DNA of 64,000 nucleotides from positions 1,612,001 to 1,676,000 of the forward strand of contig CP128816.1 in the NCBI GenBank assembly GCA_051546255.1. The letters are read 5' to 3'. The position numbers were made by a program, and so were the translations under genes. Below are positions 31,624 through 59,633 of the stretch, one piece after another. Within the stretch, counting starts at the first letter, position 1. Each line of letters starts with the position of its first letter. The stretch is from Meyerozyma guilliermondii. Its lineage: Eukaryota. The notes under the pieces are model-generated. The model saw nothing but the letters and a program-made list of their open reading frames with translations. It had not been told where the DNA came from and did no database searches.

Positions 31624-31735
31624 CACTCCGAAATCAAACCCTTGGAACGTCGCTGTAATATAGTCAAATTTTCACGCAAGCGGCGTTCACTGCGGCGCTG
31701 CATCGCTGCAGCTTATCTACTTTACCCAAACGAGA

Positions 31736-31761
31736 CCGCGGAGCGCCGCGGGGCGCCGCGG
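31736..31761. repeat. Three CCGCGG palindromes at exact 10-bp spacing upstream of the permease
   Basis: CCGCGG starts at 31736, 31746 and 31756. Confidence 0.85.
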
Positions 31762-32300
31762 ATAATTTTGAAAACGAACAATGGGCTTCGAAAGTGCGGT
31801 CCAATTGATGGCAGGAGTATATGCCGCGTCTTAGGTTGTGCCACTCAATTCGAGTCCGGAACCGTTTACGAATACAAATCAGAACTAGCATTGTTAGCCA
31901 AAATTTCATGAGCCGTACATCCCTACATCACGATCAAGGCGGCAGTGCGGCGCCGGCGATGAAGCGAAGCCTCTCATATTCGACGGCCAAAGATCAGGAC
32001 GATAAGCAATGCTCAGTCGGATTGTGCCGATACCCCGCATATTCGATACGAGAGAATTGCCCGGCCGGTGATTTGGGCGGAGGATAAGGATGGATGGTTC
32101 TGTGCACCGATATGAGTCTTGACGTATCAGGAGCGCGGCATGTTGCCGTGTAGTGGTGCAGGAGAGGGAAATGTGCAGGTGAAACGACAGAGATAGATGT
32201 AGGAACTGGAACCAGGCAAGTAGAGGAGCACAAGGCAAGTGGAGCACGATAACGAGGCACAATGACAACTTTTAATCTGGAGGTATAGTAGTATTATAGT

Positions 32301-36350: not shown

Positions 36351-36456
36351 AATGATCCTTCTTTGATGGAAGCAAAACCGCACGAGTTCTCTACAAAAAT
36401 TTTCATATGGTGTACCGATGTGTTGATACAACATCAAAATAGAGGACATAAAGTAT

Positions 36457-39111: not shown

Positions 39112-40797
39112 ATGTCGGTGACAGCACACGATACTGCCTCGAATGGTCACCTGGACAGGCGACGTGAGGTCAGAAATGGGCGGTCAAATCGCAATTCTTC
39201 CAAAAATAAGAGCTCCAAATATGCACCCATCATCGACCCCAGCGTACCACAAATACCGCCAATCGATGACTTCAAGCTATATAACATCGTGCAGAGTCAT
39301 ACTCAAGAGGAGACTACTGAAGTGGTCGATGCGGTTCTCAACGTCACAAAAAATTTCCAGCAAGACTTGCGAGATGAAATCAGAAAGAAGCTATCCATCG
39401 AACAAAGAATACAATACAAGAACATTGAACTTGCCAAACTAGTCCATGCGGTGAAAAAAGCGTCGCTGATGAAACTGCAACGGAACTTTGAAACCTTAGA
39501 TACCCTGAAGATGCAACATGAAGTTGAACTGCTAGTGACCACTGCGGCCGAGACTTCTCAAAAAGCTCGAAACTTGATCTCCACAGTCAAGAAGCTTCAA
39601 ACTAAAAGTAGCAAGTATTCTGTCAGTGAGCAAAAGTACCCAAATTTGTACAGACTTGTACATTCAGAGACAAAACAGACACATATACCAACAAAGCAGA
39701 CCAAGGTTGATAAGAAGGAAAGTCAGAACCAAGACAAAAGTAAAAACCAAGAAGTTCAGGAGCTAAGTGACGGTATCCCAGAGTATCCTGGAGCCTCCAT
39801 TATCAATGGAACTTCAATGCCTCCAAGGTCTCCCAGTCCCTCACCTTCAGATATGTCTGCCGAGCTGTTTGAACAGTTTCTTTCTCTGAGCATTGCAAAG
39901 TATCGAGAACGGCAGCGTAATAGACAGAGGGCCAATGCACTTATCAACAATGAGCTTGACGAGCTTAGTAACGTAAGAGAGGCTTCAAGTTTATCCATCA
40001 ATCCGGTCAAGCTTCTCTATTCCTCGATATTAGAAAGAGATTCTGGCAACACCACTTTTGGAATCAAATCAACTGCTACATCTGCCCTGACATTTCAGAC
40101 TTCTCATTTCAAGAAACTCAGAATCAACGGGTCACCTATCACTTCTGCGACATACAAAAATATGACTGTGAAGCCTAAATGTGATTGCGAAAGTAGTGAC
40201 GGTTCCCCCGCCAAAGCGGCTCTAGAGTCGTTGAGTATTTCGGACGCAGATGCTGGTCATAGCGTGGAATACTCAAGCTCAGATGTAATCTCTGAATCTT
40301 CTGACGATGTTTCGGTGAGCAGTGACGAATTTGCATCGCCCACCACTATAAATACCAACCAGTATTATTTGAATCTCAAAAGCGATCTCAGGCGAAAACA
40401 GTCGAAACAGTCACTCAGAAAGAGAGCGTCCACGCGGTCTTTTATTCGTGAAAGTACGTCTCCTACCCCTCGTCACAAACCATCGCATCGGACTCTCAAA
40501 CCTAAAAATTCCATACTCAAGACCAAGTCGAAACCGCAAAAGCCACTGAAAAGGACTCCCAAGCGTTCTATGGGCCCAATTGTACCACCTCATACCGATG
40601 AGGGCATCATATCTCTCAACACTGATACAGTTCAAGGCACCATTCTTCAGCTAGAACCAGAAACGAGCGACGACGAGAACGAGGTCCGCACATATCGTGG
40701 AATTGACGACACAGATAACCATAGCAGTCGATCCATAGAACGATTACGAGAATACTTGATAATGGAAGAAGGTATTATTGACTCTAGTACAAACTAG
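39112..40797 (+). CDS. Uncharacterised protein with an N-terminal coiled coil (Vab2-like candidate) and a long disordered tail
   Basis: 561-aa ORF. IPPIDDFK..coiled coil..KYPNLYRLVH; adjacent to BET1. Confidence 0.6.
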   Translation: MSVTAHDTASNGHLDRRREVRNGRSNRNSSKNKSSKYAPIIDPSVPQIPPIDDFKLYNIVQSHTQEETTEVVDAVLNVTKNFQQDLRDEIRKKLSIEQRIQYKNIELAKLVHAVKKASLMKLQRNFETLDTLKMQHEVELLVTTAAETSQKARNLISTVKKLQTKSSKYSVSEQKYPNLYRLVHSETKQTHIPTKQTKVDKKESQNQDKSKNQEVQELSDGIPEYPGASIINGTSMPPRSPSPSPSDMSAELFEQFLSLSIAKYRERQRNRQRANALINNELDELSNVREASSLSINPVKLLYSSILERDSGNTTFGIKSTATSALTFQTSHFKKLRINGSPITSATYKNMTVKPKCDCESSDGSPAKAALESLSISDADAGHSVEYSSSDVISESSDDVSVSSDEFASPTTINTNQYYLNLKSDLRRKQSKQSLRKRASTRSFIRESTSPTPRHKPSHRTLKPKNSILKTKSKPQKPLKRTPKRSMGPIVPPHTDEGIISLNTDTVQGTILQLEPETSDDENEVRTYRGIDDTDNHSSRSIERLREYLIMEEGIIDSSTN

Positions 40798-40844
40798 TTG
40801 ATATTACTTCTACAGATGCAAGCGTACCCGACGCTGGAACGGGA

Positions 40845-41282
40845 CTAGAAGATCCAAACATAGAAAAACCACAAGAAGACCAACGCGAAGAACAACAACC
40901 ACACCCGCCAACTTATTCCTGCTCGTTGGCTCATCACAATCATTTGATTAAACGTGTTTTTCAACGTCACCTTACCCTTCTCCATCGAATTGGTTATATC
41001 GTCATTCAACGCAATTCCCTTGTTGATCTCCGAACCCATCCGCACCCCCAAGTTGCGAAGGGCAGCCACTTTTTGTGACATTGATCCCAACTCGTCGTCG
41101 TTTTGAGATTCCAACGTCAGCATCATCGACTCATTATATTTGGCAGAGTTTGAAACTGTTTTGTCATAAGGCAGTCCCGACCGCAACGGCGGACTCCCCG
41201 TGTTTCTATTTGTCGGCTGCGAGAACAACTGTGTTCTGAGCTCCCGCTGATGTGCTCCGTTCGTCGAATATCGGGAACTCAT
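40845..41282 (-). CDS. BET1: ER-Golgi Qc-SNARE Bet1
   Basis: MSSRY, RTQLF, LESQNDD..MSQKV.AL..LG..MG.EI, C-terminal TM. Confidence 0.93.
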   Translation of the reverse strand: MSSRYSTNGAHQRELRTQLFSQPTNRNTGSPPLRSGLPYDKTVSNSAKYNESMMLTLESQNDDELGSMSQKVAALRNLGVRMGSEINKGIALNDDITNSMEKGKVTLKNTFNQMIVMSQRAGISWRVWLLFFALVFLWFFYVWIF

Positions 41283-41417
41283 GTTTGCTAGATGTTGTTC
41301 CTGACGCACCATCTTGCATGGTGGCATTGTACGACCTGCATAATCACACCAATGCACCCAGCCTAACCCCAGAGGCTTGCATTTTGGCACAATTGAAGGT
41401 GCATTACTAACTGCAAT

Positions 41418-42263
41418 ATGACTTCTGAAGGTCAGGTACCACGGTCGCTTTCGAACGTGCGACACATATTGCTCGTACTTTCGGGGAAGGGTGGTGTAGG
41501 CAAGTCGTCTGTGACGACGCAAACAGCCATGGCTCTTGTCAACAAGGGTTTCAACGTTGGGGTCTTGGATATCGATTTGACAGGTCCGTCATTGCCTCGA
41601 ATGTTTGGCGTGGAACTGCATCAGATCCATCAGTCCAGAGCTGGTTGGGTTCCTGTGACTGTCTATCCTCGAACAGAAACGAGAGGATCGCTTTCGCTCA
41701 TCTCTTTAGGATTTCTTCTCGGTAGTCGCAGCAGTTCTGTGGTATGGAGAGGACCGAAAAAAACAGCCATGATTCGCCAGTTTCTCTCTGATGTTGTTTG
41801 GACGGGAACTCTTGACTATTTGATCATAGACACCCCTCCAGGAACTTCGGATGAGCATATCGCCATTGCCGAAGAACTTCGGTGGGCCCAACCTTTAGAT
41901 GGAGCTATAATAGTAACCACCCCACAGCAGGTTGCAACTGCCGATGTTCGCAAAGAAATCAATTTCTGCAAAAAAGTAGGATTCGAGATTGTTGGTGTGG
42001 TGGAAAATATGAGTGGATTTATATGTCCTCATTGCGCAGAATGTACCAATATTTTTCTGTCCGGTGGTGGAGAAGCCCTCAGTAAGCAGTTGGATCTTCC
42101 CTACTTGGGCAACATACCTATAGATCCACGGTTTGTGGAGATGGTGGAAACACAATCCGATGAAAATAAGCTCATCGACTTGTATGAGAAATGTGAGTTG
42201 AAGCCCATCGTGGAAGGTATGGTGACCAAGGTGTTGGAGCAAAATAAACCGGCCAGAATATAA
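41418..42263 (+). CDS. CFD1: Cytosolic Fe-S assembly scaffold Cfd1
   Basis: [32 protein letters not shown]; lacks the N-terminal Cys cluster of Nbp35. Confidence 0.95.
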
Positions 42264-42305
42264 AGTGCTGTACGAGTTGACGAATTAATAGACGTATATA
42301 GATAT

Positions 42306-42926
42306 TCATACTATGAGGTTAAGTTTCTTCCATTGGGTTATTCTTCTTCTCAAATCACCAGCGCTCTGTTGGTAAACGTTGAGTTTCTTGTCCCATTTCA
42401 TTTTTTCATAATCATCACCATACTTCTCATACAATTTCTGTAGCCACTGGCTTTCTTGCTCTGATGGTTTGCGTTCCTTTTTGATCTTGGCATTCTTTTG
42501 GGCGGTTTCTTCGAGCTGCTTAACAACTGTGCTTACTTCTGGTGTGTCTTCGGTCAGCTTTTTCTTCATCGTACCATAGATCACCTGGGTGACCTCGTTT
42601 GTCTCTGGGTCTCTGATCAACCGTGCTTCTCCCTCAGGGATCTTTGAAGGATCGGTTGTGTTCTCTATCTCACTCACAGGCACATGTTGTTCCTCCTGTT
42701 TCTGGCTGGCCTTGATGACTGGTTTTTCCTGACCACCAACCATCGTCCCGAGTTTAGCTCTTAAACCAAGACGCTTATAATTTTGTTGAAGTGTAAGTGA
42801 TTTGTCCCAATTTGCAGCAATGATGGGATTGGAATGTATATTAATTTTTGCCTGTCTGTCCTTGAGCCTCCTGGTGTTCTTGCGGACACTCAGGCGGGCC
42901 ATTTTTCTCTTTCTGACTGAAACCAT
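42306..42926 (-). CDS. NOP16: 60S biogenesis factor Nop16
   Basis: MVSVRKRKM, NPIIAANWDKSLTL.QNY.RLGL, KYGDDYEKMKWD.KLN. Confidence 0.94.
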   Translation of the reverse strand: MVSVRKRKMARLSVRKNTRRLKDRQAKINIHSNPIIAANWDKSLTLQQNYKRLGLRAKLGTMVGGQEKPVIKASQKQEEQHVPVSEIENTTDPSKIPEGEARLIRDPETNEVTQVIYGTMKKKLTEDTPEVSTVVKQLEETAQKNAKIKKERKPSEQESQWLQKLYEKYGDDYEKMKWDKKLNVYQQSAGDLRRRITQWKKLNLIV

Positions 42927-42953
42927 GTTGCTGAAGAGTGAACCAGTTTGGTG

Positions 42954-42970
42954 GAAATTTATGAGATGAG
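42954..42970. promoter_or_regulatory. RRPE-like plus PAC (GATGAG) elements upstream of NOP16
   Basis: GAAATTT followed by GAGATGAG (GATGAG at 42965-42970), within about 45 bp of the ATG of a ribosome-biogenesis gene. Confidence 0.55.
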
Positions 42971-43217
42971 GTGTATCTGCAGGAAATTGTGTGTGGGGAC
43001 GATTTCAAGCAAAATACATTAGGGCCAGGATTGCACAAGCTAGGGTATGCCAAAAGGCTATCGCTGTTGATGCTTTTCGATTTCAGTTACTTTGAGTCGA
43101 ATGGAAAAGATGTTCGAAAATTTGAAGATTTTCACTTTCGTACAAGATACTACTTTTGCTTTCTCCACTCTTTGGGGGTTCCACTCTTTGGTACTTTGAG
43201 ACACCATTTTCTGGTAA

Positions 43218-43697
43218 TTACCCTCTTTCGGTATTTGAATCTCCTGGAAAATCACCTCGGCCACCACGACCACCTCGTCCACGTCCCCTTCCTCTACCTC
43301 TGCCTCGTCTTCCACGGCCACCACGTTTGCGGAAACCTGGTAAGTTGATCCTCTTTGGACTTATCCTTAATTCTCTTTCATTGAACTTTTTGCCGTGCAA
43401 TTCCTCGATGGCTCTTTCGGCGGCTTCCGTGGTGTCAAATTCAATGTATGCAAAACCTTTTGACAAACCAGAATACCTATCAAAGAGTATGGTGACTCTT
43501 TCTACTGTGCCGACAGCACTGAAAAATTCTTCCAATTGTCCAGGAGTGGAAAGGTATTCAACGTTTCCGACGTAAATGGATCTTTGATCTATTTCTTCTT
43601 GCTTTGGCAAATGTTCTCCTCGTCCTTGTTCGGTCCCTTGAGTATTATCTATTGGATGCGACACCTCTTGGTGGCTGAATTGTTCTTGTTCACTCAT
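43218..43697 (-). CDS. SGN1: RRM RNA-binding protein Sgn1 (PABPN1-like)
   Basis: RNP2 SIYVGNV, RNP1 KGFAYIEF, PKRINLPG, RG-rich tail. Confidence 0.85.
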   Translation of the reverse strand: MSEQEQFSHQEVSHPIDNTQGTEQGRGEHLPKQEEIDQRSIYVGNVEYLSTPGQLEEFFSAVGTVERVTILFDRYSGLSKGFAYIEFDTTEAAERAIEELHGKKFNERELRISPKRINLPGFRKRGGRGRRGRGRGRGRGRGGRGGRGDFPGDSNTERG

Positions 43698-43810
43698 TAT
43701 TTACTAAAGGATCAATGTAATGTCTATTCACCAAGCCGGTATGACCAGGTCTAGCTTGGTGCAGGTCACTTCATCAAATTTTCCTGCACAGGCCGCAAGC
43801 TAGCTGTGTA

Positions 43811-45100
43811 TTATACCTCTACAAATGCTCTGTAAGTGGTGAACTCGGGCTCGGAAGAGTGAAGATCAACTTCAGCCCCTGGGCCGATAAAGTAAACGTA
43901 ACCCTTTTTGACTTCTTGCTTGGAACCTTGCACCACAATCGAACCCAGGCCCTTGGTTGCAATGAGAATCGATGGGCCGTTAAACTTATCAAAGTGTTGC
44001 AACTGGTTAGCTTCAGTGAACAAGGTTTGTAACACGGCAAACTCTTCAATTGGTGGGTCGTAGAGCACTGACTTAGCATCACCGGAAGACTTGGCAAATG
44101 GAAGTAATGGCATTTTCTGTTTCTCGACCGAGTCGTACGAGTAGGTCAACATATCCACCAAATTTTTCACGTCTTTGAATTTGGGGGTAAATCCAGCACG
44201 TACCACGTTGTCCGAAGCAGCCATACATTCGATTATATCTCCGTTGATGTATGCGTGGGGGTCCTTTGCTTGCAAGAACATGGCTTCACCTGGTGCAAGA
44301 ATAACATGGTTCAACAAAAGGCATCCGCAAAAGAGACCGATATCGTTGGGAAACTGCTTATTGAGGCGCTGTATCAATTCTGGCAACTTTGGAGAAATCG
44401 CAGTGAACACCTCAGGCTGGGACTTGGTGCGTTCGACCAATTCGGCAGCGCGAGCATTGATGGTGGCATCGTCAGTGTTCATCAATTTGCCAAACACTTT
44501 TTGAAGAAGCTTACGGTTCTCTACGTCCTCTTGAGATCCAGCGGTTGCATCTGGGGTAATACCATTGCAAAATTCCTCAACCAACAAATCGCCAATCACA
44601 GAAGTCAATTCAGGCACGGTTTTCAATGTCTTGGCGAGCTCGGAAAGTGGCTTGAAACCACAGAAACCTTCGAACAGAGTCACGGCAATGGCCATTTCCG
44701 GCTTGTGGTTGTCGTCAGGGTAGTTCTTGGGGTCGTTGGTGTGAAGCTGTTTGGCCAACTGCTTATCAGGATGAGCTTGAATCGATAATACCTTTTCGAT
44801 TGACAACACCTTGAACAAAAATGGAAGTTGAGCACCAAATTTCTTTACAATTGAGGCATGAAGGTGCTTCGAAGGATCTTCGGTAACCAAGTCCCGCAAA
44901 GTCTGGCCGGACTTGCCGCCAGACACAACGGTTGAAGGAACCGATGGATGGGTACCCATCCACAATTCAGCATATGGCTTTTTCTCGTCAATGGTGATAG
45001 AAGGGTCTGAGGTGCTTGCAAATTGAGCCACAGCAGAGCTGGAGCCGACTTTGCCCCAATCGTAGTTCTGATATCCACAGTTTATTCTGAAAACTGACAT
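43811..45100 (-). CDS. PMI40: Mannose-6-phosphate isomerase
   Basis: YDWGK, AELWMGTHP, LSIQAHPDK, YPDDNHKPEM, ECMAASDNVVRAG. Confidence 0.98.
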   Translation of the reverse strand: MSVFRINCGYQNYDWGKVGSSSAVAQFASTSDPSITIDEKKPYAELWMGTHPSVPSTVVSGGKSGQTLRDLVTEDPSKHLHASIVKKFGAQLPFLFKVLSIEKVLSIQAHPDKQLAKQLHTNDPKNYPDDNHKPEMAIAVTLFEGFCGFKPLSELAKTLKTVPELTSVIGDLLVEEFCNGITPDATAGSQEDVENRKLLQKVFGKLMNTDDATINARAAELVERTKSQPEVFTAISPKLPELIQRLNKQFPNDIGLFCGCLLLNHVILAPGEAMFLQAKDPHAYINGDIIECMAASDNVVRAGFTPKFKDVKNLVDMLTYSYDSVEKQKMPLLPFAKSSGDAKSVLYDPPIEEFAVLQTLFTEANQLQHFDKFNGPSILIATKGLGSIVVQGSKQEVKKGYVYFIGPGAEVDLHSSEPEFTTYRAFVEV

Positions 45101-45209
45101 AGCTAGCGAATGATACACAACACGTTGTCAGCGGAGCGCGTTGTCGCGAACTCCGAAAAAAAGGCACCATACAGGAACTCTTACATGCATTCCAATTGTC
45201 CTATCTAGC

Positions 45210-47729
45210 TTAATCTGCCTTAGCACCGATTATGGCACCCAAGGTAGAATTTCCGGCTCTTCTTGCTGATCTCTTTCTCCGTCGTAACGTGTGGATCATA
45301 CCAAATACGGCAAATAGTACCAAGTATCCTACTATGCCATGCATATGAACATAGTCCATAAACCTCATAATCTTTGGATATGGGCTTCCCACAAGCTTTG
45401 TAGTCATTTGAGCCTTAACCTTGACCAATGCAGGGTCTAAAAAGTATCTCAAAGTCTCACTCATGCTTTCTGGGTCCATGTTCATTGGTTGTCCACCGAC
45501 AAGTTGATCCCAATAGTAGCGTCCATCTCTTTGAACCACGATGGCATGGCCGGGACTATATGAGCGCCCGTTAATGTCTAATCCCAACTTGCGGGCAAAG
45601 TCTTTGTTTACGGCGAGGTCGATGAATGTAAAGAGAACATCATCGTCGTCAAAGTATCGAGGTATTTCTCGCTTCATGTCCTTGACCATTTCAAGACTGT
45701 CAGCAGAACGTTGCTTCAAACGGTTACTAACGTCGTATTCGTCCTTGTGTGCCTGTTTCATTTTCTCGAAAAAATATTCCTTCTTGGTATGGTGATACTC
45801 GTGTGCCATTAAGGACATGGCATAAAGGTAATTGGCGGTAGCACTGGCATCCTCAGAATTGATAAACCCAATAACAACTTTTTGAGTGCCTTTTACGCGC
45901 TCATAGGTGGTATTGAAGTAACTGGGTACTAATTCGGGTGTCAATTCTTGGTATAATGGAAATTGATTCCGAGCAACGAATTCTTCAACCTTGGCATAAT
46001 CTTTCATATCCTCAAGTTGCAAATTTTGATATATGCTGGTTACCAAGGAGTTATCTTTGAAGATGAGAATCGTTGGCTTGGCGGTGAGTGTTGTCGCTAA
46101 AAAGTTTGGCTCGTCAAATGAACGTTCGCTGGAGGAAACAACATTGTTGATAAATTGTACAAGGTTCTTACCTTGGTCGTTCACTTGTTGCTCGTAAAGT
46201 TTCTTAGGGGAAACTTTTCCAGTGTAAAGGTGTACGTTGAACTTTGAGTCCGTGACGTATTGAAGTAGTTTTGGTAAAATTGTTTTGTCTTCTTCTGTTA
46301 CAGTGTTCTTATCGTAGTAGAAAACCACTGAGACAACATTGGCCAACGGGTAGTACAGACCCAAAGGTTTGGCAGGAAGGTTACTGCGAAGCTCCATTAC
46401 GTCGCCAAGTTTGGGAACCGTAAGTATTTCGTACTGAGAGTTCTCAAAAAGACGAGTAGAGAACTTCTTCATAGCTTCAATGGTGAGTTCGCCAGAGTAG
46501 TCAAACCTAACAATGCCTGCGGTTTCTGGAAGAAACATGGCAAAATGAGGACGAGCAGACGCTCCACGCTTGGAGAATTCCTTGAGTCCAATTTGTTCAC
46601 AGAGATCCGGATGGCTCCTGCAATTAAAGTTGGCAGTTCTAACGGTACTTTGAACCAAGTTCAGGAGCCGATCCCACAACTGTTTCCACTCCAAGCACTG
46701 AACACACTCACGAGGAAAGAGGTTTTTGCCGGACTTTTCATGCGCATCCCATTCCTTGTCAGTTGTTGGAAAGAAGCCAACAAACACAGCCAGGTCAATA
46801 GATCCAGACACAATCTTGATAAGTTCGTCCATCGATACTGTCTTGGATACACTAGGCAAGTCTATTGCTCCAGCGTTATACTCCGCCACGCTATTCTTCA
46901 TGTATTTTAAGAAATTCTCCTTCGTTCTCATAATTGAACGAGGGAAAGAACCAACGAATTTCAGCTTCCCAGGAATTAATTTACCGTTCTTATCCTTTGC
47001 TGGTGTGTAAAGACGCAAGTTGGGGTAGTAAACCACATCTTCACGCTCACACAAGTCACCAGACTCAATACAGTTCACCTGGCGCATTTGGATCTTAAGG
47101 TCTTTCATTTCGGCTTGATATTCTTCAACGGTAGCCTCCCAAGTAGGGGCCAATTGCTTACAATGGAGGCAGTACGGTGAGAAAAATTCCACGAAAGAAA
47201 GCTGCTTGCTGGTGACGCTATCAAAGTCTTGCATGGTGAGAAGCGGAGGCATCTCGAACCCTTTATGACCCAGCGATGATTCGTCATACTCAACAACGTC
47301 AGCCTTAGCATTCCGTTGAGGCTTCTTAGCAGCTTTGGGTGCCTTCTTCGGTGCAGACTTGGCTTTTTCGCCAGCCTGTTTCAGATCCTTCGACACTTTT
47401 CCAGGCTTGGCATCTTTTGAAGTATCTTCATCTTTGGGTCTTGCTGGTGCATTCTTTGTATTCTTCGTAGATTTTTCACCAGAAACCTTTTTTGTACTGT
47501 CTTCAGCTTTGGAGTCGTCCTTTACGGTTTTCTTAGGTTTTTTGGCGTCTGTTTTTCTAGCTTTGTCAAGTTCATCCGCGGCACCCAAGTCGATGTATTT
47601 TTCGTCAGGCGTCTCAGCAGCCTTTTCTAATTGATTCTTTACCGAGGCAGGCGTTGCTATAACTAGAGTAGCCAAGAGAAACGAGAGAAACAAGAGGAGT
47701 TGTGGAGAACATAACCTCCGTACTCTCAT
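45210..47729 (-). CDS. EPS1: Membrane-anchored PDI-family protein Eps1
   Basis: Signal peptide, thioredoxin motif FFSPYCLHC, QVNC..SGDLC, C-terminal TM with KAD end. Adjacent to YIA6 as in S. cerevisiae. Confidence 0.85.
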   Translation of the reverse strand: MRVRRLCSPQLLLFLSFLLATLVIATPASVKNQLEKAAETPDEKYIDLGAADELDKARKTDAKKPKKTVKDDSKAEDSTKKVSGEKSTKNTKNAPARPKDEDTSKDAKPGKVSKDLKQAGEKAKSAPKKAPKAAKKPQRNAKADVVEYDESSLGHKGFEMPPLLTMQDFDSVTSKQLSFVEFFSPYCLHCKQLAPTWEATVEEYQAEMKDLKIQMRQVNCIESGDLCEREDVVYYPNLRLYTPAKDKNGKLIPGKLKFVGSFPRSIMRTKENFLKYMKNSVAEYNAGAIDLPSVSKTVSMDELIKIVSGSIDLAVFVGFFPTTDKEWDAHEKSGKNLFPRECVQCLEWKQLWDRLLNLVQSTVRTANFNCRSHPDLCEQIGLKEFSKRGASARPHFAMFLPETAGIVRFDYSGELTIEAMKKFSTRLFENSQYEILTVPKLGDVMELRSNLPAKPLGLYYPLANVVSVVFYYDKNTVTEEDKTILPKLLQYVTDSKFNVHLYTGKVSPKKLYEQQVNDQGKNLVQFINNVVSSSERSFDEPNFLATTLTAKPTILIFKDNSLVTSIYQNLQLEDMKDYAKVEEFVARNQFPLYQELTPELVPSYFNTTYERVKGTQKVVIGFINSEDASATANYLYAMSLMAHEYHHTKKEYFFEKMKQAHKDEYDVSNRLKQRSADSLEMVKDMKREIPRYFDDDDVLFTFIDLAVNKDFARKLGLDINGRSYSPGHAIVVQRDGRYYWDQLVGGQPMNMDPESMSETLRYFLDPALVKVKAQMTTKLVGSPYPKIMRFMDYVHMHGIVGYLVLFAVFGMIHTLRRRKRSARRAGNSTLGAIIGAKAD

Positions 47730-47851
47730 GATAAGTGTTGATCCTCACGTAATTTAAAATCGCTTTTTCGCGCCGAGAAAAGATTAGGCGCCGCGAATCT
47801 GGGGAACTGAAAAATTACGGAATATATTCTATATGCTATTATACAAGTGCT

Positions 47852-48970
47852 CTAAAAGTGGCCAGTAACTTCAAGTAAGTATGTTTTGAAGTATTCGAAA
47901 CTGACAAGGGTCACAGCACTGGCAGGGACAGTACGGGCCAAGTTGATGGTGTATCCGGCGTAAAACCCTCGTAAGCCTTCCTTCTTGTAGATGCGGGTCA
48001 TGATATGTAACAATTTGCTCTTTTTAACTTGACCTGGCTCTTTTTTGGCTTTGGAGCTCTGGATTTGCATTCTGGTACGAAGGATCTCGTGTGGATAAGT
48101 GACAGTGCTGGCAATCATTTTACTGACGGACGATGCGACTATAAGTCTCCATAACAACAGGGAATCTCCATTTTGATGCTGGGGCGTGAGGTTGCAATCG
48201 AGTGCTTGCTTGAGTTTCTCATACACCGGAAAATGAATACCAACATGCAAAAGGCCAAAGAGAGATGGAATGAGTCCACTGTAGAACACACCTAAACCCT
48301 CCTCTTTGTACATCGTTGTGAATGCATCAGTAGTACCTTTGTAGTGGGTGACGCGCTTTCCGTCACCATAGATATTGCTCTCTTTGCCCGTTTGAATCAT
48401 AAGCCGTGTCTTTACTACCCATATTGGGTTTACAAGTACAGACGACGCAGAGCCCGCGGTCAATGCTGATAAAAAATGCGAAACAGTAGCCGATTCCGTA
48501 TCGGCAAAATGCTCTCGAATGAATTTAGGATAGAATACCTTTGCCCGTTCATAAACGGTAAAATAAATGGTCCATGTTGGCAAGTAACCAATAGTGATGG
48601 GAACAAGTCCTCGATACAAGCCACGAACTCCCTCTTCACGAAGTATAGTTTTAAATGCACCGATGAAGCCTGAATACTTGGGCACCTGACGAGGAGACTT
48701 TGGGTTTCGTTCTCTATAACCAGCTCCTTGTGCTTGGAGCCTCGTCTTGACTACATCGAGCGGGCAAACAACAACACCCGCTAAGAAGCCCGAGGCAGCT
48801 CCTGCCAACGTGACAAGCTGGTTGGGCGAGAGCACAGTGAGAAGTTTTGGTGGCAGTGACACGGATAAAGCGGGTATTTTCGTGACATTGAAGTTGCGAT
48901 GCGGTGATTCTCGGAACTCCATATCTTCACCCTGCACGAAATCAGAGAAGTCTCTCGAGTTGGGACTCAT
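47852..48970 (-). CDS. YIA6: Mitochondrial NAD+ carrier (Yia6/Ndt1)
   Basis: Carrier repeats CPLDVVKTRLQ, NPIWVVKTRL, YPHEILRTR; GYLPTWTIYF. Confidence 0.9.
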   Translation of the reverse strand: MSPNSRDFSDFVQGEDMEFRESPHRNFNVTKIPALSVSLPPKLLTVLSPNQLVTLAGAASGFLAGVVVCPLDVVKTRLQAQGAGYRERNPKSPRQVPKYSGFIGAFKTILREEGVRGLYRGLVPITIGYLPTWTIYFTVYERAKVFYPKFIREHFADTESATVSHFLSALTAGSASSVLVNPIWVVKTRLMIQTGKESNIYGDGKRVTHYKGTTDAFTTMYKEEGLGVFYSGLIPSLFGLLHVGIHFPVYEKLKQALDCNLTPQHQNGDSLLLWRLIVASSVSKMIASTVTYPHEILRTRMQIQSSKAKKEPGQVKKSKLLHIMTRIYKKEGLRGFYAGYTINLARTVPASAVTLVSFEYFKTYLLEVTGHF

Positions 48971-49659
48971 GTGCGATGATAATGTGATAAAATATGACGG
49001 TTTGTGGTTTTTGAGCCAATTTTATGGAGTATTTAGCAAACTTTTTGGTTTGTAGACGGCACAAAAATGTGCCTGTGGACGACGGCTCGGGTTCTAGGGA
49101 CACTTATTTGTGAAATTATGGTCCAAGAAGAGATGTAATTTCGAAGAACTCGGAGGAAAACCGTGATACTTGTCGACTTGAAAATAATGTTACCTTTAAC
49201 ACATCAAATCGCATCCGTTAATCGGTCTTGATTTCTCACAAAGGTCGTGCGCGACAAAATGGAGATAAGTAAAGAGGGGAGTTGAAAGGCACTTAATGGC
49301 GAAGAATTGGTAGTCGAGACAGACTGGGTACAGTATTAGCTTAAATTCGCGGGCCGACGTTCCAAAGTCGCAGATTCGGCATTGTCAATTCGTCGTTCTC
49401 AAGTCATAAATTTACGTGCACATCTCTAAAGTCGCTTGCAAGGATTATAAGGTCGCCATTTAAAATTCGTCCTCTGAATTTTTGAAACTCGTTCACGATA
49501 AGAGCCAAATTCTTGTGAAGAATTTCACGGACTCCAAATTTGTCAATCTCGTCTACACTGATCAATAGTGCAGTACTAATTAAAGTTCGATGTCGCCTCA
49601 CAGGACTTTCGAAGGCGGTTATCAAATCTAGAATATGATGTCATGGTCACTTTTCGGTA

Positions 49660-50060
49660 CCCGCTTCTACATGTCTCACGATTATGTTTCACTAAGATAA
49701 TTTTTTAAAAGCAATAGCGAAAGTTGTATATTAACCAAGATTGTTTGCGGCACCTTTCATCAGACAGGTGATCGGCGCTGGTTTAACTGAAGCGTCATAG
49801 TCGTGGGAATGGTGCTTTAGATTTCAAACTGGAAGTTGAAGAAGGCTGTTTATGGTATGAAATAGGCCGGATTCGAATGGTTTGTTTGCCTTACCGATGT
49901 TCTTATCGAAGCGGCTGCAAAGTTTGGTTTTGATGTGCTGAGTGCTTTTGTCATCTTTGCCAACTATGAGTAAATCGTCACATAGAGACTAAGAATGACG
50001 AAATAGGAGGCAAACGGATGTACAATCTTACGAGAAGCGAGATCTGTATTCAGCACGGAA
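49660..50060 (-). mobile_element. Degenerate Ty1/copia (Ty5-like) reverse transcriptase relic
   Basis: Minus strand reads LYIR..SYFVILSLY-V/DDLLIVGKDDKSTQHIKTKLCSRFDKNIGKA, with a 1-nt frameshift inside YVDD at about 49980. Downstream IAF..KLS..RHVEA resembles the copia DIAFAV..LS..H..A block. Boundaries are approximate. Confidence 0.78.
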
Positions 50061-50301
50061 CGAAATAGGATTGATATCAGGGCGAATTTCGGATGTTTGC
50101 CTGCGATTTCACTTCATCTTGTTTGCTTATGACTCTCTTTTGAAGCAATTGCCTACAAGGTCAAGAGAGTCCTGTTTTGATACCATTCAATTGGTATCCA
50201 TGCAACTCTTCACCTCTGTCACTCTCGGAGTTTCATTAGGTTTTACTGGAGTTTGATACTACATGCTCCTACTTGTTTGTGCACTTGTCAATTTATTGCT
50301 C

Positions 50302-51114
50302 TTATTCACACGTTAGAAGTTCGAAGTGCCTTTTGCTACTTTTATGAGTCGTCCATCCTGCATCCATTGGGGCCTCTTGCCTGATATCTTTGACAGTATT
50401 GCAAGCCATAAGCGCCATTACGGTCCGAATTTTGTCATGAATGATATTCAATGCAATGCATACTCCTTTCTCTCCATTATGAGCAAGACCACAAAGATGA
50501 ATCCGATCTACCCAACAATGTTCAGTACCCAAGGCAAGTGCCTTGAAAAAAGTCACTGCCACGTCTTAGTCCCCCATAAATGTGAAAGGGAACTCTTCCT
50601 TTGACTGCTTCAACAATCAGAGGCAACGCATCCCAAGGTGGACATTGCGCTGTCGACTTTTCGGCCACCATGGTTAGAAACGAGAAACCCATCGGCACCA
50701 GCTTCAACAGCTCTTTGGCGGCATTCTCCCTTGTGAGAATACCTTTGAGCCAAAATTACACCTTTGTCTTCTTCTTGATCTCCTGAACGTATTTCCAGAG
50801 GCAAGAGAAGCTCGTAGTGGGTACGTTCGTCGATACTGTTCATGTTGGATCTATTTGTCCATGGGTAACTAGGAAAGTTGAGATGGTGCGTCAGGAAATT
50901 CGTTTTTCATTTCTCCCAATTCACTACCAAGCCATGGACAATCCACACCGATGTAAAGTGCTTTATAGCCACAAGTCTGCATTTAACATAAGAGGATTTG
51001 TTTTCCAAGGTCTTGTGCTCCATTAAACCACCATTGATAGAAGCCTTTCGTTTGCAGCTACTTCCAAGTCAGCTATGCAGTGAATTTTCTGGTCGTAGGT
51101 TGAGCCCGATTCAT
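50302..51114 (-). pseudogene. FMN-dependent (S)-2-hydroxy-acid oxidase (glycolate oxidase-like) pseudogene
   Basis: Fragments in different frames: MNRA/YDQKIHCIADLE, NGG.M..TL.NKSSY, GYKALYIGVDCPWLG, GADGFLVSNHGGRKVD, GGLRRGSD/FFKALALG, TVMALMAC. Several frameshifts and a large internal deletion near 50970. Confidence 0.92.
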
Positions 51115-51377
51115 TGTTACGTGACTAAATCAATCAGAATTGCTAAAGATATATACATCAGAGGAATTCCATTGCTTCGGCATTTCTTCGGCATTTTGCC
51201 GAGCACCAAATCTGGTTTCGTATTTGATATCACAATGCCGAAGCATATCTTGCATATCAATTGCGGGGTGAGATAAGACCGTCGGAAATACCATCTACTG
51301 CGAGATAGTTCTTGTACATATATACCAGCTTGGTAGCCGCCTTTTGCGGTATCAAGTTACAGACGGCAGATTCATCC

Positions 51378-52820
51378 ATGGTAAGTGAATCAAAAATAAG
51401 CCCCAGTATAGTTGTCTCACCCCAAATCAGTCACTATAGTGAGTTTGATACCGGTGAACATGATGTGTTTGTCGTTACTGAGGAAGGTCCAGATTTCCGT
51501 GGAGTATCTACGCTAGGTGCAGCGGTTCTTATTGCAAAGTCACAAATGGGACTCGGAATTCTTGGAATTCCCCAGACTTTTCAATCTTTGGGATTTGTTC
51601 CTGGTCTTATAAGTCTAGTTGCACTCTGTGCGTTAAGTACATGGACAGGATTTATAGTGGGAAAGTTTCGCCTTCGCCATCCTTCAGTATATAGCATTGG
51701 TGATGCTGCAGAAATGATGTTTGGCACTATGGGTCGTGAAATTATGGGAGGTGCATTTTGGCTTTTCTACACTCTTTGCTATGGTGCTTCACTTTTGACC
51801 TTTTCTATATCCTTGAATACGTTGAGTGATCATTCCAGATGTACTATGGCTTGGATCGGAATTGGTGCTGCTATATCATTGGTGTTGGGACTGGGAATTC
51901 GTACCATGAAAGTCATGTCTTGGTGCGGTTATGTTGCTCTTAGCTGTATCATGATCAGTGTATGGATTGTAGCCATAGCATGTTTGGCCCAGAAAAAACC
52001 GGCAGATGCCGCTAAAGGCTTGCCCATTGACAAGGGAATTGTTGCAGTTTCGTCCAATGTGCCATTTTCCTCCATTGCTAGTGCAACTGCTACGCAAGTG
52101 TTGTCACTATGTGGTACAGCTTCTTTTTTTACAATTCATTCTGAAATGAGAGACCAAAAAAAGTACGTGAAATCACTTCTTCTCGGACAAGGGTTTGTTT
52201 GCTTCAATTACATTGTTATTTCCTGTTTCATTTACGCAAAGGTTGGCAATTATGTTACCTCGCCTGCTTTAGGATCGGCTGGTTCACTTTTCAAAAAAAT
52301 AGGCTACGGCATAGCCATTCCAGGATTATTGTTTTCGTGTTTTTTCCAAGCACATCTTGCCGGAAAGTATTCCTTTGTTCGTATTCTTAGAGATACGACA
52401 CATCTACAGCTGAACACGGTCATTCATTGGGTTACCTGGACAATACTGATGGTGGTTGTGATTTGCGTGGGTTTTGTAGTTGCAGGTGGTATTCCTTTCT
52501 TTAATGATTTGTTAGCATTGATAGGTGCTTTGATCGGAACAAGTTTTACATTGATAATTCCAGGGTTCTTGGCTTTATACGACCTTGGGAGATATGTGCC
52601 TAAAGAAGGCGATGGCCTGTTTCAATGGATCGTTCAGTCAAAAAAGAAGTGGGGTTTGAACAACAGAAACATCATAACTGCAAGTGTTGCGATTTTTTCA
52701 ATTGTGTTTGGCAGTTATATCGCTGTTTCCGGGATTTACGGTTCTCTCAAATCTATTATTGATGGATACCGGAATGGTTTGGTTCCGTCTGCTTTTTCAT
52801 GTGCCGATAATAGTACTTAA
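51378..52820 (+). CDS. AAAP/Aa_trans amino-acid permease (Neurospora Mtr-like)
   Basis: GPDFRGV, AKSQMGLGILGIP, FRLRHP.VYSI.D, SEMRD, SPALGSAG, IPFFNDLL; about 11 TMs. Confidence 0.9.
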   Translation: MVSESKISPSIVVSPQISHYSEFDTGEHDVFVVTEEGPDFRGVSTLGAAVLIAKSQMGLGILGIPQTFQSLGFVPGLISLVALCALSTWTGFIVGKFRLRHPSVYSIGDAAEMMFGTMGREIMGGAFWLFYTLCYGASLLTFSISLNTLSDHSRCTMAWIGIGAAISLVLGLGIRTMKVMSWCGYVALSCIMISVWIVAIACLAQKKPADAAKGLPIDKGIVAVSSNVPFSSIASATATQVLSLCGTASFFTIHSEMRDQKKYVKSLLLGQGFVCFNYIVISCFIYAKVGNYVTSPALGSAGSLFKKIGYGIAIPGLLFSCFFQAHLAGKYSFVRILRDTTHLQLNTVIHWVTWTILMVVVICVGFVVAGGIPFFNDLLALIGALIGTSFTLIIPGFLALYDLGRYVPKEGDGLFQWIVQSKKKWGLNNRNIITASVAIFSIVFGSYIAVSGIYGSLKSIIDGYRNGLVPSAFSCADNST

Positions 52821-52984
52821 CAAAATTCAAAGTACCAATGGGTGAATCTGGTATTATGTGGCAGTAGACAACGTCGAAATAGTAAAATTTATGGTTTAGT
52901 CTTGTTCTAATGCCCCAACAGGCGAAGGAGTGACATAAAAAAACACTACAATCTCTCCAAAAGAACACTCGATCAAATATATTA

Positions 52985-53878
52985 TTATTCGATATAACCC
53001 GCAAGAAACGCCTTGTAATAGATGGGTAAACCGTCAATTAGCGACGGCTTGCTAGGATGCCACCCAAGAATGGAGCGAGCAAATGTTCCTCTAACAATGC
53101 TTGTTGCCGCTAAAGCGACTTCGAAATTGGATTTGGGTTCTTTGTAAGAATACGATAGAACACCTGTAAGAGCCACTAGATGTGATAATAGCGTATCAAC
53201 GCTTTCGGTAGTAGTGTTGCTTCCCTCGATTTTGAGCCCCTTCACCAAAGGGTATTTCTCAACAGCAAGACGATATAACTCGCCTAAATCATCAACATGC
53301 ACTGTGGCATATCGACCACCGGGAATCCCTGGCCATTCAATTTTTCCGCTAGCGGCTATCTGACTGAAAAGGATACCAACAACGTTTGACTGCCTTCCAT
53401 AAACTAGTCCAGGACGAATAACCACTCCGTCAACTAATTTACTCGCAACTAGGTAGTTTTCCACTTCTGGTCGCCATGCAACTTTCTTAGGCGGATGAGT
53501 TGCTTCAGAGCCATCTGTCACAAACTCAAAGCGATTATCACCATGTAACCAAACACCAGAAGTCCATACGTATGCCAATTTTGCAGCTGTGGCATCCCGC
53601 TCGGCATTTTCAGCTTTTTTGATAAATTTAATACTCAATTCACTGAGTGAAGCACCTCCAAGACAATCAACTACAACATCAATTGATTGTAGGTCTTTTA
53701 ACCATTTATCATCAGAAACAGGGTCACATTCCAATACTTCTAATTCATTCCGCTCAAATAATTTACCCCATTTACCAGCATCTCGAGTTTGTCCAATAAC
53801 TTGGTGACCAGCACGTACCAATGATCCAGCAACACTAGAGCCGATATATCCACTGGCACCAAGAACGAGCACCTTCAT
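52985..53878 (-). CDS. Atypical/extended SDR (NAD-dependent epimerase/dehydratase-like)
   Basis: KVLVLGASGYIG Rossmann motif, TSGVWLHG, IRPGLVYG, VHVDDL..LY, ARSILGW.P. Confidence 0.9.
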   Translation of the reverse strand: MKVLVLGASGYIGSSVAGSLVRAGHQVIGQTRDAGKWGKLFERNELEVLECDPVSDDKWLKDLQSIDVVVDCLGGASLSELSIKFIKKAENAERDATAAKLAYVWTSGVWLHGDNRFEFVTDGSEATHPPKKVAWRPEVENYLVASKLVDGVVIRPGLVYGRQSNVVGILFSQIAASGKIEWPGIPGGRYATVHVDDLGELYRLAVEKYPLVKGLKIEGSNTTTESVDTLLSHLVALTGVLSYSYKEPKSNFEVALAATSIVRGTFARSILGWHPSKPSLIDGLPIYYKAFLAGYIE

Positions 53879-54163
53879 ATCAAATAAAGCTTGACCGGAA
53901 TTAGTTAATAAATGAGCCTTTCATATCCCCTTTTCTTTCTGGCATTGCGGCAACTTTCCGAAACGGCCAAGTTCTCACTCGGTAGAAGTCCGATAATCAG
54001 TTATATGCCGGATATAGTTGAGATCAGTGGTCGAAATACACTATGACTGACGCAGATGTTCGGAACATCGCCGAATACCGGCATGTCAACGATATCGTCT
54101 ATAGATAACCAAGTGCCACTTATCAAGTACCCTCCTGTTATCTTGTGTGAAAGCAGGAGTAGA

Positions 54164-55170
54164 ATGACTACCAAGATACTAAAAAGATCGTTGGCAAGGA
54201 GCTACGTTTGGTCAATGACAGGCGATAGACGTGTGACTCTAGAGAAAGAAGAATCTGTATCTGAGGCTGCAAATGGTAAGGGAAGTAGGACTGAAGCGTC
54301 GAAAAGGTACGACTGAATCAGCTAAAGAGATCCAAGAACGCGGCGGTGAACAATTACGATCACATATCGGACTGGAGATAAGAAATTGATGAAGATGTTC
54401 ATTCTTATCAAACAGCTTCCGTCAGGAAGTGCAAGTCACCGCATCATGACGTCCAAGGTTCTCCCAGCTCATCAATTCATGGAGGAGATGACACTTTTGG
54501 GTGAAGGATTTGCTAGTGAAATGCCGATACTCCAATTCCTCTGAGCCAGAAAGTATAAGTTTAGAATTCATTGGAAAAGAAAATTGGGCTCTTGCCAAAC
54601 TAGGAAGAGATTCTTTCAAGGTTGCCCGTAAAAATATGCTGGAAAAGCGAACACCCGATTTCACTGCGTATGACTCTTCTGTTTTGCGCCGAGTCTCGAA
54701 ACGCTACTTTACATGGATGAACAGTACCTGCTCTGTATTGCACATGAACTGAGACTATGAGGTATTGGAAAAATGCCAAACGAACGACAAGCACGCTACG
54801 AAATTTAAAATATTCAAATTGAAGACAGTCGTTGCAATTTCCTTATTATGGCCGTCTCCCAATCGACCGAATTACATGTAGCCTTTCATTCGGTTGAAGA
54901 AGCCATAAATTTGGTTAGTTATGCATCGAGACCACTCAGTTGTGTTTTTCCGGCAAACTGTTCAAAATTTGTTCATATGTAGATGAGATTCATCAAATTT
55001 GAAAGAACTTATGCCCTATGTATTTCGTTCATGGACGTTATACTACATATACAAACTTGCACTTCAGCACCTGAAACTCTTGCAACTTTAGTGAGAGGAG
55101 ATCATGAGAAATTTTACGGAAAATTTTTGAAGTTGCCTAAAAGCTTCGAAATTGCAAGATCCTGGTCATA
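54164..55170 (+). pseudogene. Probable decayed Zn2Cys6 / fungal-specific transcription factor
   Basis: RYFTWMNSTCSVLH (54702-54743), in-frame stop at 54750, then LEKC..FKIFKLKTVVAISL, resembling the start of the Fungal_trans domain. A stop-riddled RR*TCDSRER..C..C near 54220-54265 may be the zinc cluster. Boundaries are approximate. Confidence 0.55.
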
Positions 55171-55216
55171 AAGGAGGTTGCTGTGTATGGGATCTTCGTG
55201 CTAAGTCAGATGAATT

Positions 55217-55247
55217 GATCTCGAACGATCTCGAATAGATCTCGAAT
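55217..55247. repeat. Short tandem repeat, GATCTCGAA x3
   Basis: Copies start at 55217, 55227 and 55238. Confidence 0.8.
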
Positions 55248-55496
55248 GAATCTTGGTGAGATTCTCTCGCATGATTGCTCTCGTGACTCTCGATTAGAAT
55301 ACATTATTTAGCTACATCCTCTTCTGGCATTTCTCGTGCGTTGCATCTCTCGGTTATGACGTATCACCGAATCCCTACGAAAATTTCTACATTTTGAGTC
55401 AACTCGGGCCAACTCATTTTGACTCACTCGGCCGAAATTAGTTCGCGCGATGGGCGAACTCCACATAAAAGGAGCACATTCAGCAAACACATTATT

Positions 55497-58729: not shown

Positions 58730-59200
58730 ATGATGTCTGTTAGTTCTGGAAGCGAAAGACATCGATCACATCGTCTCCTTGACATCAGAGCTCATGATAC
58801 ACCCGATGACTTGTGGATGGTTATTCACAATAAAGTTTATAATGTAAGTTCTTTTGTTCTGGAACACCCTGGAGGTGTGGAAGTGTTGTTTGATTGCGGT
58901 GGCGTAGACGCAACCGAAGGATTTGACGATGTGGGTCACTCTGAACGAGCAGTGATGATGCTAGAACCGTACTATATTGGTGATGTTGCACCCGAAGATC
59001 AAAAACGAGGGTCTAGTTTAAGGAGCTCAGCACAGTCAAGGGAGCCGCTGGAAGGTACCGAAAAGACTGTAGGAAAGCAAATTAAGGAGAACGTTCATAA
59101 TTTTGTGGGACCAAATCTTGCACTTTTATTGTTTGCGGCATTGGCAATTTCCTCCCTTGTATTATATTTGGGATTGCAAAGAACAAAGTTACCGAGGTGA
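58730..59200 (+). CDS. Tail-anchored cytochrome b5-like protein
   Basis: LWMVIHNKVY, EHPGG, DAT.GF.DVGHS, C-terminal TM. Confidence 0.9.
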   Translation: MMSVSSGSERHRSHRLLDIRAHDTPDDLWMVIHNKVYNVSSFVLEHPGGVEVLFDCGGVDATEGFDDVGHSERAVMMLEPYYIGDVAPEDQKRGSSLRSSAQSREPLEGTEKTVGKQIKENVHNFVGPNLALLLFAALAISSLVLYLGLQRTKLPR

Positions 59201-59421
59201 CAAGTTCCAAATGATGGACTCAACAGGTCTCTGGCCTAACTGGATGCATGTGTTCGCTGGATGCGAACTAGTATTTATTATAGACATTAAAATAATGAGC
59301 AAAAAATTAAGTGAGAGCTAAAAATTTTTAATTCAGGAAGCAGCTTGGTGATTCCTTCTTGAATCAACTTGCTTTGCAATCATTAAAAGTTGCAATTACC
59401 TAAATTGAAAAAAATAATCGT

Positions 59422-59507
59422 AGCCCGACGCGGGGGTCGAACCCGCAGCCTTTTGATCGCTTCTCTTGTATAAGAGTCAAACGCTCTACCGATTGAGCTA
59501 GCCAGGC
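59422..59507 (-). tRNA. tRNA-Lys(CTT) with a 13-nt intron (59458-59470)
   Basis: Acceptor stem GCCTGGC/GTCGGGC, D-arm GCTCAATCGGTAGAGC, anticodon arm TTTGA-CTCTTAA-TCAAA after splicing, T-loop GGTTCGACCC. Pol III terminator T7 at 59408-59414. Confidence 0.97.
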
Positions 59508-59633
59508 CCGCTCTTGACAGAAAGGTGTTGCTAGTTCTTATGATCACACGATCTCAGTATATCTGAGAAGAAGTTGCTTGATTAGATACATATACTCTTA
59601 CTGAAGAACTTCCATTTACCATTTATTTATGTA

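Follow-up and report, generated by a model that had tools for sequence, protein, structure and literature searches.

A stretch of 64,000 nucleotides from the yeast Meyerozyma guilliermondii (contig CP128816.1, positions 1,612,001 to 1,676,000) was analyzed; it is referred to here as the window, and all positions are counted from its first letter. Attention was centered on positions 39112 to 55496, where a preliminary description had placed a candidate centromere, or the scar of a former one, in a gene-poor island (48971-55496) next to a block of genes that are centromere-linked in other yeasts. At a probability of about 0.6, this locus is an ordinary islet of gene turnover at the edge of an ancient CEN7 synteny block, with no recognisable centromere. 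The gene content and the gene order, one pseudogene and a fragment of a reverse transcriptase (RT) gene, as well as the lack of repeats and of any GC-poor island, were read directly from the window. We infer an order of events for the locus, and also that no kinetochore is assembled on it.

The synteny block extends over 40845-48970 (Table 1). The seven contiguous gene names that had been proposed for it were confirmed at the family level in six cases, but the assignment of BET1 is weak. The BET1-like open reading frame (ORF) had no Pfam match at 1e-3, and the only matches obtained were weak ones to Use1 (E 0.0027) and to the SNARE chain of syntaxin-6 (E 0.04). The name is thus given mainly because of the size of the protein, its C-terminal membrane anchor and its position. 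The PMI40 product matched the Candida albicans PMI structure 1PMI with an E value of 4e-200, and its nearest named proteins were those of Suhomyces tanzawaensis (75%) and Scheffersomyces stipitis (74%). Orthology within the block was assigned from the protein family together with the gene order. When the surroundings were scanned, none of 22 ORFs (21 to the left of the block and one overlapping MIR1) corresponded to a CEN7-linked gene, and none was found among the right-hand genes either. Since the flanking ORFs on both sides are not CEN7-linked, the block comprises exactly seven genes. We take their Saccharomyces cerevisiae counterparts (YIL004C, YIL003W, YER002W, YIR001C, YER003C, YIL005W and YIL006W) to lie near CEN9 and CEN5, as their numbering from the centromere implies; a literature text search for these names gave no match. 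In the literature this proximity is backed indirectly, by the gene order of Hanseniaspora uvarum and by the placement of CEN7 beside URM1 (Hession 2025).

The order of the block was compared with that of Hanseniaspora uvarum, in which the genes carry the identifiers g004065 (BET1), 66 (CFD1), 69 (WBP1), 70 (INP51), 73 (SGN1), 74 (NOP16), 75 (PMI40), 80 (EPS1), 81 (YIA6) and 84 (URM1) (Haase 2026). The order in the window, BET1-CFD1-NOP16-SGN1-PMI40-EPS1-YIA6, is collinear with the identifiers 65, 66, 73, 74, 75, 80 and 81, except that NOP16 and SGN1 are swapped and the interposed genes are missing. The block is therefore a contiguous run of putative orthologues of the genes flanking Anc_CEN7 (CEN-ALG), as judged from family and order. 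With respect to the Anc_CEN7 linkage group of Saccharomycetales, Saccharomycodales and Phaffomycetales, the same genes are present in an order nearly identical to that of H. uvarum; by contrast, WBP1, INP51 and URM1 are absent from the whole window, NOP16 and SGN1 have changed places, and no centromere is visible at either of the two candidate positions considered below.

The argument for centromere linkage that had been drawn from this synteny is sound and agrees with the published work (Haase 2026; Hession 2025). In other orders, genes that are linked to point centromeres have kept a linkage to Ty5-cluster centromeres far above chance, and this linkage holds across Pichiomycetes and Saccharomycetes, a Ty5-cluster centromere being inferred in their common ancestor (Haase 2026). 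The location of the centromere is kept across three orders (Hession 2025), and centromere synteny is partly kept within the Candida clade (Lynch 2010). The concept of conserved centromere-linked neighbourhoods is thus already in print in these three sources.

Within the window, two sites are conceivable as orthologues of a centromere, namely the CFD1/NOP16/SGN1 junction and the far side of YIA6, towards URM1. To judge by S. cerevisiae gene numbering, the centromere of the Saccharomycetales lies at the first of them. In the window, the junction that is syntenic with the CEN7 interval of Saccharomycetales and Saccharomycodales has collapsed to spacers of 42 bp and 291 bp, without WBP1 and INP51, and because of the size of these spacers it has no room for a centromere. 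The interval holding the centromere in relatives of baker's yeast thus appears to have been cut out of the seven-gene block. One explanation built on this observation is that the ancestral CEN7 centromere left with the WBP1-INP51 segment and now lies beside those genes elsewhere, the window consisting of the fused outer pieces. This would be compatible with gene turnover at the island, and we regard it as improbable. It is suggested by the placement of WBP1 (69) and INP51 (70) between CFD1 (66) and SGN1 (73) in the H. uvarum identifiers, by the tight spacing of CFD1, NOP16 and SGN1 in the window, and by the location of the Saccharomycetales centromere in this interval, as read from S. cerevisiae gene numbering. 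However, the direction of change is not established, and the segment may instead have been inserted in the Saccharomycetes lineage.

The second position coincides with the island, which begins exactly at the far (URM1) side of YIA6. In the Phaffomycetales, CEN7 adjoins URM1 (Hession 2025), and in H. uvarum URM1 is three gene identifiers away from YIA6; therefore, the CEN7 side of the Phaffomycetales corresponds to the island side here.

Table 1. Features of the seven-gene block and of the adjoining island (positions in the window).
Feature	Position	Strand	Evidence and remarks
BET1-like tail-anchored SNARE, 160 aa	40845..41327	-	Left block end; adjoins CFD1 as in H. uvarum
CFD1, NUBP-type P-loop Fe-S assembly ATPase	41418..42263	+	Pfam ParA/NUBPL, E 2.7e-90
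CFD1-NOP16 spacer, convergent, 42 bp	42264..42305		ORF coordinates
NOP16	42306..42926	-	Pfam Nop16, E 4.9e-66
NOP16-SGN1 spacer, 291 bp	42927..43217		ORF coordinates
SGN1-like RRM protein	43218..43697	-	Pfam RRM_1, E 4e-19; orthology inferred from position
PMI40, mannose-6-phosphate isomerase	43811..45100	-	Three PMI domains; homologues named PMI1/PMI40
EPS1-like PDI family member, 839 aa	45210..47729	-	Thioredoxin, E 2e-18, and Thioredoxin_6; adjoins YIA6 as in H. uvarum
YIA6-like mitochondrial carrier	47852..48970	-	Mito_carr, E 1.3e-74, 3 repeats; right block end
Gap 1, 2407 bp, GC 0.420	48971..51377		Divergent upstream region; contains RT fragment and dead dehydrogenase gene
Copia-type (RVT_2) RT fragment, about 43 codons, one in-frame stop	49830..49958	+	Pfam, database search, tblastn
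Dead FMN-dependent alpha-hydroxy-acid dehydrogenase gene	50374..50985 (recognisable part)	-	Split over three frames, stops
Amino-acid transporter Aa_trans, intact, 480 aa	51378..52820	+	Pfam, E 1.1e-29; GC3s 0.316
NmrA-like/NAD-dependent epimerase family, intact, 297 aa	52985..53878	-	Pfam Epimerase, E 6.2e-10, NAD_binding_10, NmrA
Gap 2, 1618 bp, GC 0.417	53879..55496		Divergent upstream region

As had been stated, no stretches of the window that lack an intact ORF are longer than the two in the island, the next longest being 988 bp. Because the genes flanking each gap point away from each other, each gap holds two upstream regions. Two intact genes lie between the gaps. The neighbours of the Aa_trans gene in a protein atlas were Ascomycota clusters named "N amino acid transport system". 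The NmrA-like gene has the lowest GC content at synonymous third codon positions (GC3s) in the window, 0.298. The atlas clusters nearest to it were mostly from Basidiomycota and bacteria, not from yeast, which is a lead only; this gene may be patchily distributed or acquired.

Pseudogenes had also been claimed for these stretches, and one was found in gap 1, a dead gene for a flavin mononucleotide (FMN)-dependent dehydrogenase, but none was found in gap 2. The FMN_dh family was matched by three of the 21 fragments of gap 1, in three frames (E 1e-12, 3.6e-7 and 1.7e-8). When stops were read as X, it was matched in three frames of 50300-51377 (E 2e-16, 4.7e-11 and 1e-7), and about positions 125-346 of the 350 in the profile were covered at approximately 50374-50985. 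By extrapolation, the original gene probably spanned about 50305-51370, and it accounts for about 1 kb, nearly half, of gap 1. In gap 2, a credible Pfam match was obtained for none of 15 fragments and none of six read-through frames, no Rfam family was detected, and the only repeat was an 11-bp tandem repeat of 3.4 copies at 55212-55249.

The copia RT relic that had been reported in the island is real and corresponds to a fragment of RVT_2, but it lies on the plus strand and not on the minus strand, and it is a single piece of about 130 bp. With a six-frame read-through, positions 114-142 of the 244 in the RVT_2 profile of Pfam were matched with an E value of 1.5e-4. A search of a database of 5.8 billion proteins, in which 42 candidates were scored, gave one match (P0175, E 5.9e-6), a copia polyprotein of 1344 aa with an RVT_2 domain (E 4.9e-75) and a Pol beta-barrel domain. 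When this polyprotein was compared with the window by tblastn, positions 49830-49958 were matched with an E value of 3.6e-11 and 65% over 43 aa; among the first 25 residues, 24 were identical. No second RT piece was detected by the same tblastn comparison in the 64 kb, all other matches having E values of 0.5 or worse. No integrase, RNase H, gag or long terminal repeat (LTR) was found by Pfam read-through with E values up to 10, by tblastn with the full polyprotein or by repeat searches. The RT fragment is thus genuine, and the 64 kb contain no other trace of a retroelement. Its RVT_2 match assigns it to copia (Pseudoviridae), a classification that holds at the level of RVT_2 only.

The same DNA looks RT-like on both strands, its plus strand reading "KKAVYGMK.AGFEW" and its minus strand "CDDLLIVG", and only the former is significant. 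The minus-strand piece with "DDLLIVG" (49827-49988) scored 13 bits, with an E value of 0.07, and was rejected, the plus-strand reading of the same DNA being far stronger; "CDDLLIVG" is probably a chance mimic of the YVDD box.

In the reading that we prefer, the synteny block would end at an islet formed by two intact non-core genes of low GC3, the decayed dehydrogenase gene and the RT fragment. The emptiness of the two stretches would reflect the upstream regions of divergent gene pairs and, for about 1 kb of gap 1, the dead gene. Rearrangement would have cut the old block at both sides and would also have taken out the WBP1-INP51 segment, which bears the centromere in Saccharomycetales and Saccharomycodales. 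At the right-hand breakpoint, lineage-specific genes would have been gained and lost. The RT fragment may derive from a retroelement that was inserted there and then almost wholly deleted, or from a piece of cDNA captured in the repair of a break, as is known to happen in S. cerevisiae.

The island was compared with known centromere architectures, four of which have been described for the Serinales (Hession 2025). Ty5-cluster centromeres measure about 20-40 kb, occur once per chromosome and contain full elements, truncated elements and solo LTRs; the statement that Ty5-like elements cluster at the centromeres of S. stipitis (Tps5) and Debaryomyces hansenii (Tdh5) agrees with the literature. 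The window shares with these two species the yeast family and a copia-type trace beside genes that are centromere-linked in other orders, but instead of a cluster it has the one RT match of 129 bp, no other piece being found by tblastn, and the 64 kb contain no direct and no inverted repeat of at least 40 nt. Kilobase-sized inverted repeats of the Candida tropicalis and Candida parapsilosis type were not found either, the longest pair in 38-60 kb being 27 nt at 74%.

The predicted GC-poor centromeres of Millerozyma and the AT-rich centromeres of Clavispora lusitaniae resemble gap 1, with its size of 2.4 kb, in their extent and in having no retrotransposon cluster. The predicted centromeres of Millerozyma (Pichia sorbitophila) are 2.2-3.1 kb long, gene-free and featureless, and lie 10.8 GC points below the genome, whereas gap 1 is only 1.5 points low and contains a dead gene. 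Set against a gene-free island of about 2-4 kb, its 2407 bp without an intact ORF include about 1 kb of that dead gene. No GC-poor island was detected at scales from 200 bp to 3.1 kb, since the GC contents of the gaps were 0.420 and 0.417, as compared with 0.436 for the window. The largest GC deficit in any stretch of 2.2-3.1 kb was 4.7 points, at about 19 kb, and the stretches of lowest GC were located elsewhere, at 8-10 kb and 18-21 kb. Short spots of low GC near 54.9 kb (200-300 bp, GC 0.33-0.36) were also considered, and equally extreme ones occur elsewhere in the window.

The centromeres of the C. albicans type have no sequence mark and occupy a gene-free region of 4-18 kb (Hession 2025); they carry Cse4/CENP-A on 3-5 kb and replicate early. 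The island is comparable to them in that neither a motif nor a repeat is required, but its gene-free spans measure 2.4 and 1.6 kb, with two intact ORFs between them, and no skew signal has been reported for Candida guilliermondii. Additionally, the point-centromere layout (a CDEI-like box, an AT-rich core and a CDEIII-like box containing CCG, fixed in spacing) was represented by TCACRTG-N70-100-CCGAA, which gave no match where 0.56 were expected, in a crude test; two TCACGTG sites are present in the window, both outside the island. In agreement with the earlier statement that no centromeric motif is visible, the island offers no positive sequence mark of a centromere.

A trough of GC content at third codon positions (GC3) had been proposed as a check. 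Within the window, a weak dip was observed at the island. For the three genes located at 51.4-56.0 kb, GC3s values of 0.316, 0.298 and 0.387 were obtained, the mean of the window being 0.440 (standard deviation 0.063). The permutation p values for runs of two, three, five and six genes were 0.054, 0.025, 0.25 and 0.075, uncorrected for the four lengths. The dip is suggestive at most, and it could equally mean low expression or recent acquisition, in view of the atlas neighbours of the NmrA-like gene. Low GC3s values were also found in the SGN1-like gene at 43218-43697 on the minus strand (0.329) and in a cytochrome b5 gene at 58730-59200 on the plus strand (0.327); low GC3s is not confined to the island, since a gene with such a value lies outside it. 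The literature search found no centromere map for Meyerozyma. In C. guilliermondii, whose centromeres are unmapped, neither a deep GC3 trough (Lynch 2010) nor a skew signal (Koren 2010) was found anywhere. For this reason, the absence of a trough is not decisive in Meyerozyma.

Several points weigh against gene turnover as a sufficient account of the locus. Relatives of the block genes flank centromeres in three other orders, with CEN7 of the Phaffomycetales located by URM1, on the YIA6 side, and the linkage of such genes to Ty5-cluster centromeres is far above chance (Haase 2026). The longest gene-free stretches, the retroelement trace and the dead gene together fit pericentric decay, and the genes of the island hold the lowest GC3s values in the window (0.316 and 0.298, then 0.387). 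Moreover, Hanseniaspora centromeres retain solitary LTR relics only (Haase 2026), so that a single relic is compatible with a centromere, and centromeres of the C. albicans type carry no sequence mark (Hession 2025).

These points bear first on the existence of a small epigenetic ("featureless") regional centromere, free of repeats and not poor in GC, that would be active in the island, most likely in gap 1. It would have stayed in place on the URM1/YIA6 side of the ancestral CEN7 neighbourhood, and the RT fragment would be all that is left of an earlier Ty cluster. Such a centromere is quite unlikely in our estimation. Presuming a genome of about 10.6 Mb with about eight chromosomes, any stretch of 6.5 kb has a prior of less than 1% of containing a centromere. 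These odds are raised severalfold because the island adjoins the CEN-linked block directly and holds the sole gaps longer than 1 kb near it; they are lowered again because three of the four architectures fail and almost half of gap 1 is accounted for by the dead gene. The proximity of the Phaffomycetales CEN7 to URM1 and the conservation of centromere location across orders and into Pichiomycetes are in favor of it, as are the longest gene-free stretches of the window, the size of gap 1 within the 2.2-3.1 kb of Millerozyma, the RT fragment with the dead gene, and the local GC3s minimum. With unmapped centromeres and no trough or skew signal anywhere, C. guilliermondii must also have inconspicuous ones. 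However, the GC content of gap 1 is only 1.5 points under the window mean, as opposed to the 10.8 points of Millerozyma, and there is no repeat or inverted repeat. A dead gene takes up about 1 kb of the 2.4 kb. The gene-free span falls short of the 4-18 kb of C. albicans, and the island is interrupted by two intact ORFs. Furthermore, the divergent flanking genes mean that each gap should hold two upstream regions.

It is unlikely, though not to the same degree, that the island represents a scar left by a former centromere or the flank of one located just outside the window. A Ty-cluster centromere beyond YIA6 would have been inactivated or moved. Deletion of its elements would have spared a single RT fragment, and decaying genes and a small deficit in GC3 would also remain. 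The same synteny evidence applies here, together with the decay features and the weak GC3s dip over three to six genes. In the Phaffomycetales, centromeres are documented to have moved by tens to hundreds of kb (Hession 2025), and to the right of the block the window covers no more than 15 kb. On the other hand, nothing connects the RT fragment with a cluster or with the Ty5 lineage, given that neither an LTR nor a second fragment was found, and the dip in GC3s is a marginal one. Decaying genes and isolated pieces of retroelements are also encountered outside centromeric regions, and few predictions of this explanation are testable from one genome.

The closest parallel to a lone remnant is provided by the proto-point centromeres of Hanseniaspora (Haase 2026). 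In both cases a solitary retroelement remnant lies by conserved centromere-linked genes; however, in Hanseniaspora these are Ty5 LTRs at experimentally mapped centromeres, while the remnant in the window derives from the internal RT part and lies at a site that has not been mapped.

With gene turnover retained as the preferred reading, what the locus contributes is that the CEN7 neighbourhood survives as a seven-gene block, ordered as in Hanseniaspora, in a CTG-clade yeast. The sequence contains no new kind of feature, and the locus is a reasonable first place to look for a centromere, with three candidate sites that can be named: the YIA6 junction, INP51/WBP1 and URM1/PRE6. If the island did contain a centromere, it would be the first one located in Meyerozyma, an opportunistic pathogen and a yeast of biotechnological use, and would be useful for stable plasmids. 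It would be a further data point for yeast centromeres that keep their place while their structure changes, and would extend the conservation of centromere location since the common ancestor with Saccharomycetes to a CTG-clade genus that resists every sequence-based predictor. It would also show what a Ty-cluster centromere becomes after near-complete loss of its elements.

About 40 genes were counted in the window as a whole, and its GC content is 43.6%. Meyerozyma belongs to the CTG-Ser1 clade (Serinales, Debaryomycetaceae), and CTG codons were scarce, ranging from 0 to 9 per ORF among the ORFs of at least 100 aa in the whole window. Within 37.6-64 kb, a Pfam family was assigned to 16 of 18 ORFs. 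Immediately to the left of the block, at 39112-40797 on the plus strand, lies a Ser/Lys-rich ORF of 561 aa without a Pfam family. It is very fast-evolving, with 82% identity to its nearest named protein, from Meyerozyma sp. JA9, and about 33% or less to proteins from outside the genus (other Debaryomycetaceae and Candida). The genes to the left of the block include FAS2, SEC7, STB3, MCM7, THO1, an M1 aminopeptidase, asparagine synthase, RPN12 and VPS28, among others, as well as a permease, a syntaxin, ARG82, SUP35 and a KTR mannosyltransferase. To the right of the island, genes for a CXXC zinc protein, a phosphate-carrier-like protein, an ArfGAP, cytochrome b5, RSA3, a HIF1-like protein and a RhoGEF were identified.

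The only RNA gene detected in the window was a tRNA-Lys(CTT) of 89 nt at 59420-59508 on the minus strand, which probably has an intron because its length exceeds that of a standard tRNA. The SUP35-like release factor gene (34275-36449, minus strand) contains imperfect tandem repeats of 9-24 bp at 35731-36216. These lie in the N-terminal region and encode Q/G/Y-rich oligopeptide repeats, the prion-domain-like part of the protein. Finally, the intergenic stretch 31624-32300, upstream of a purine-cytosine permease gene, has an unusually high GC content (0.510 over 677 bp) and includes the tandem repeat CCGCGGAGCG at 31736-31762.

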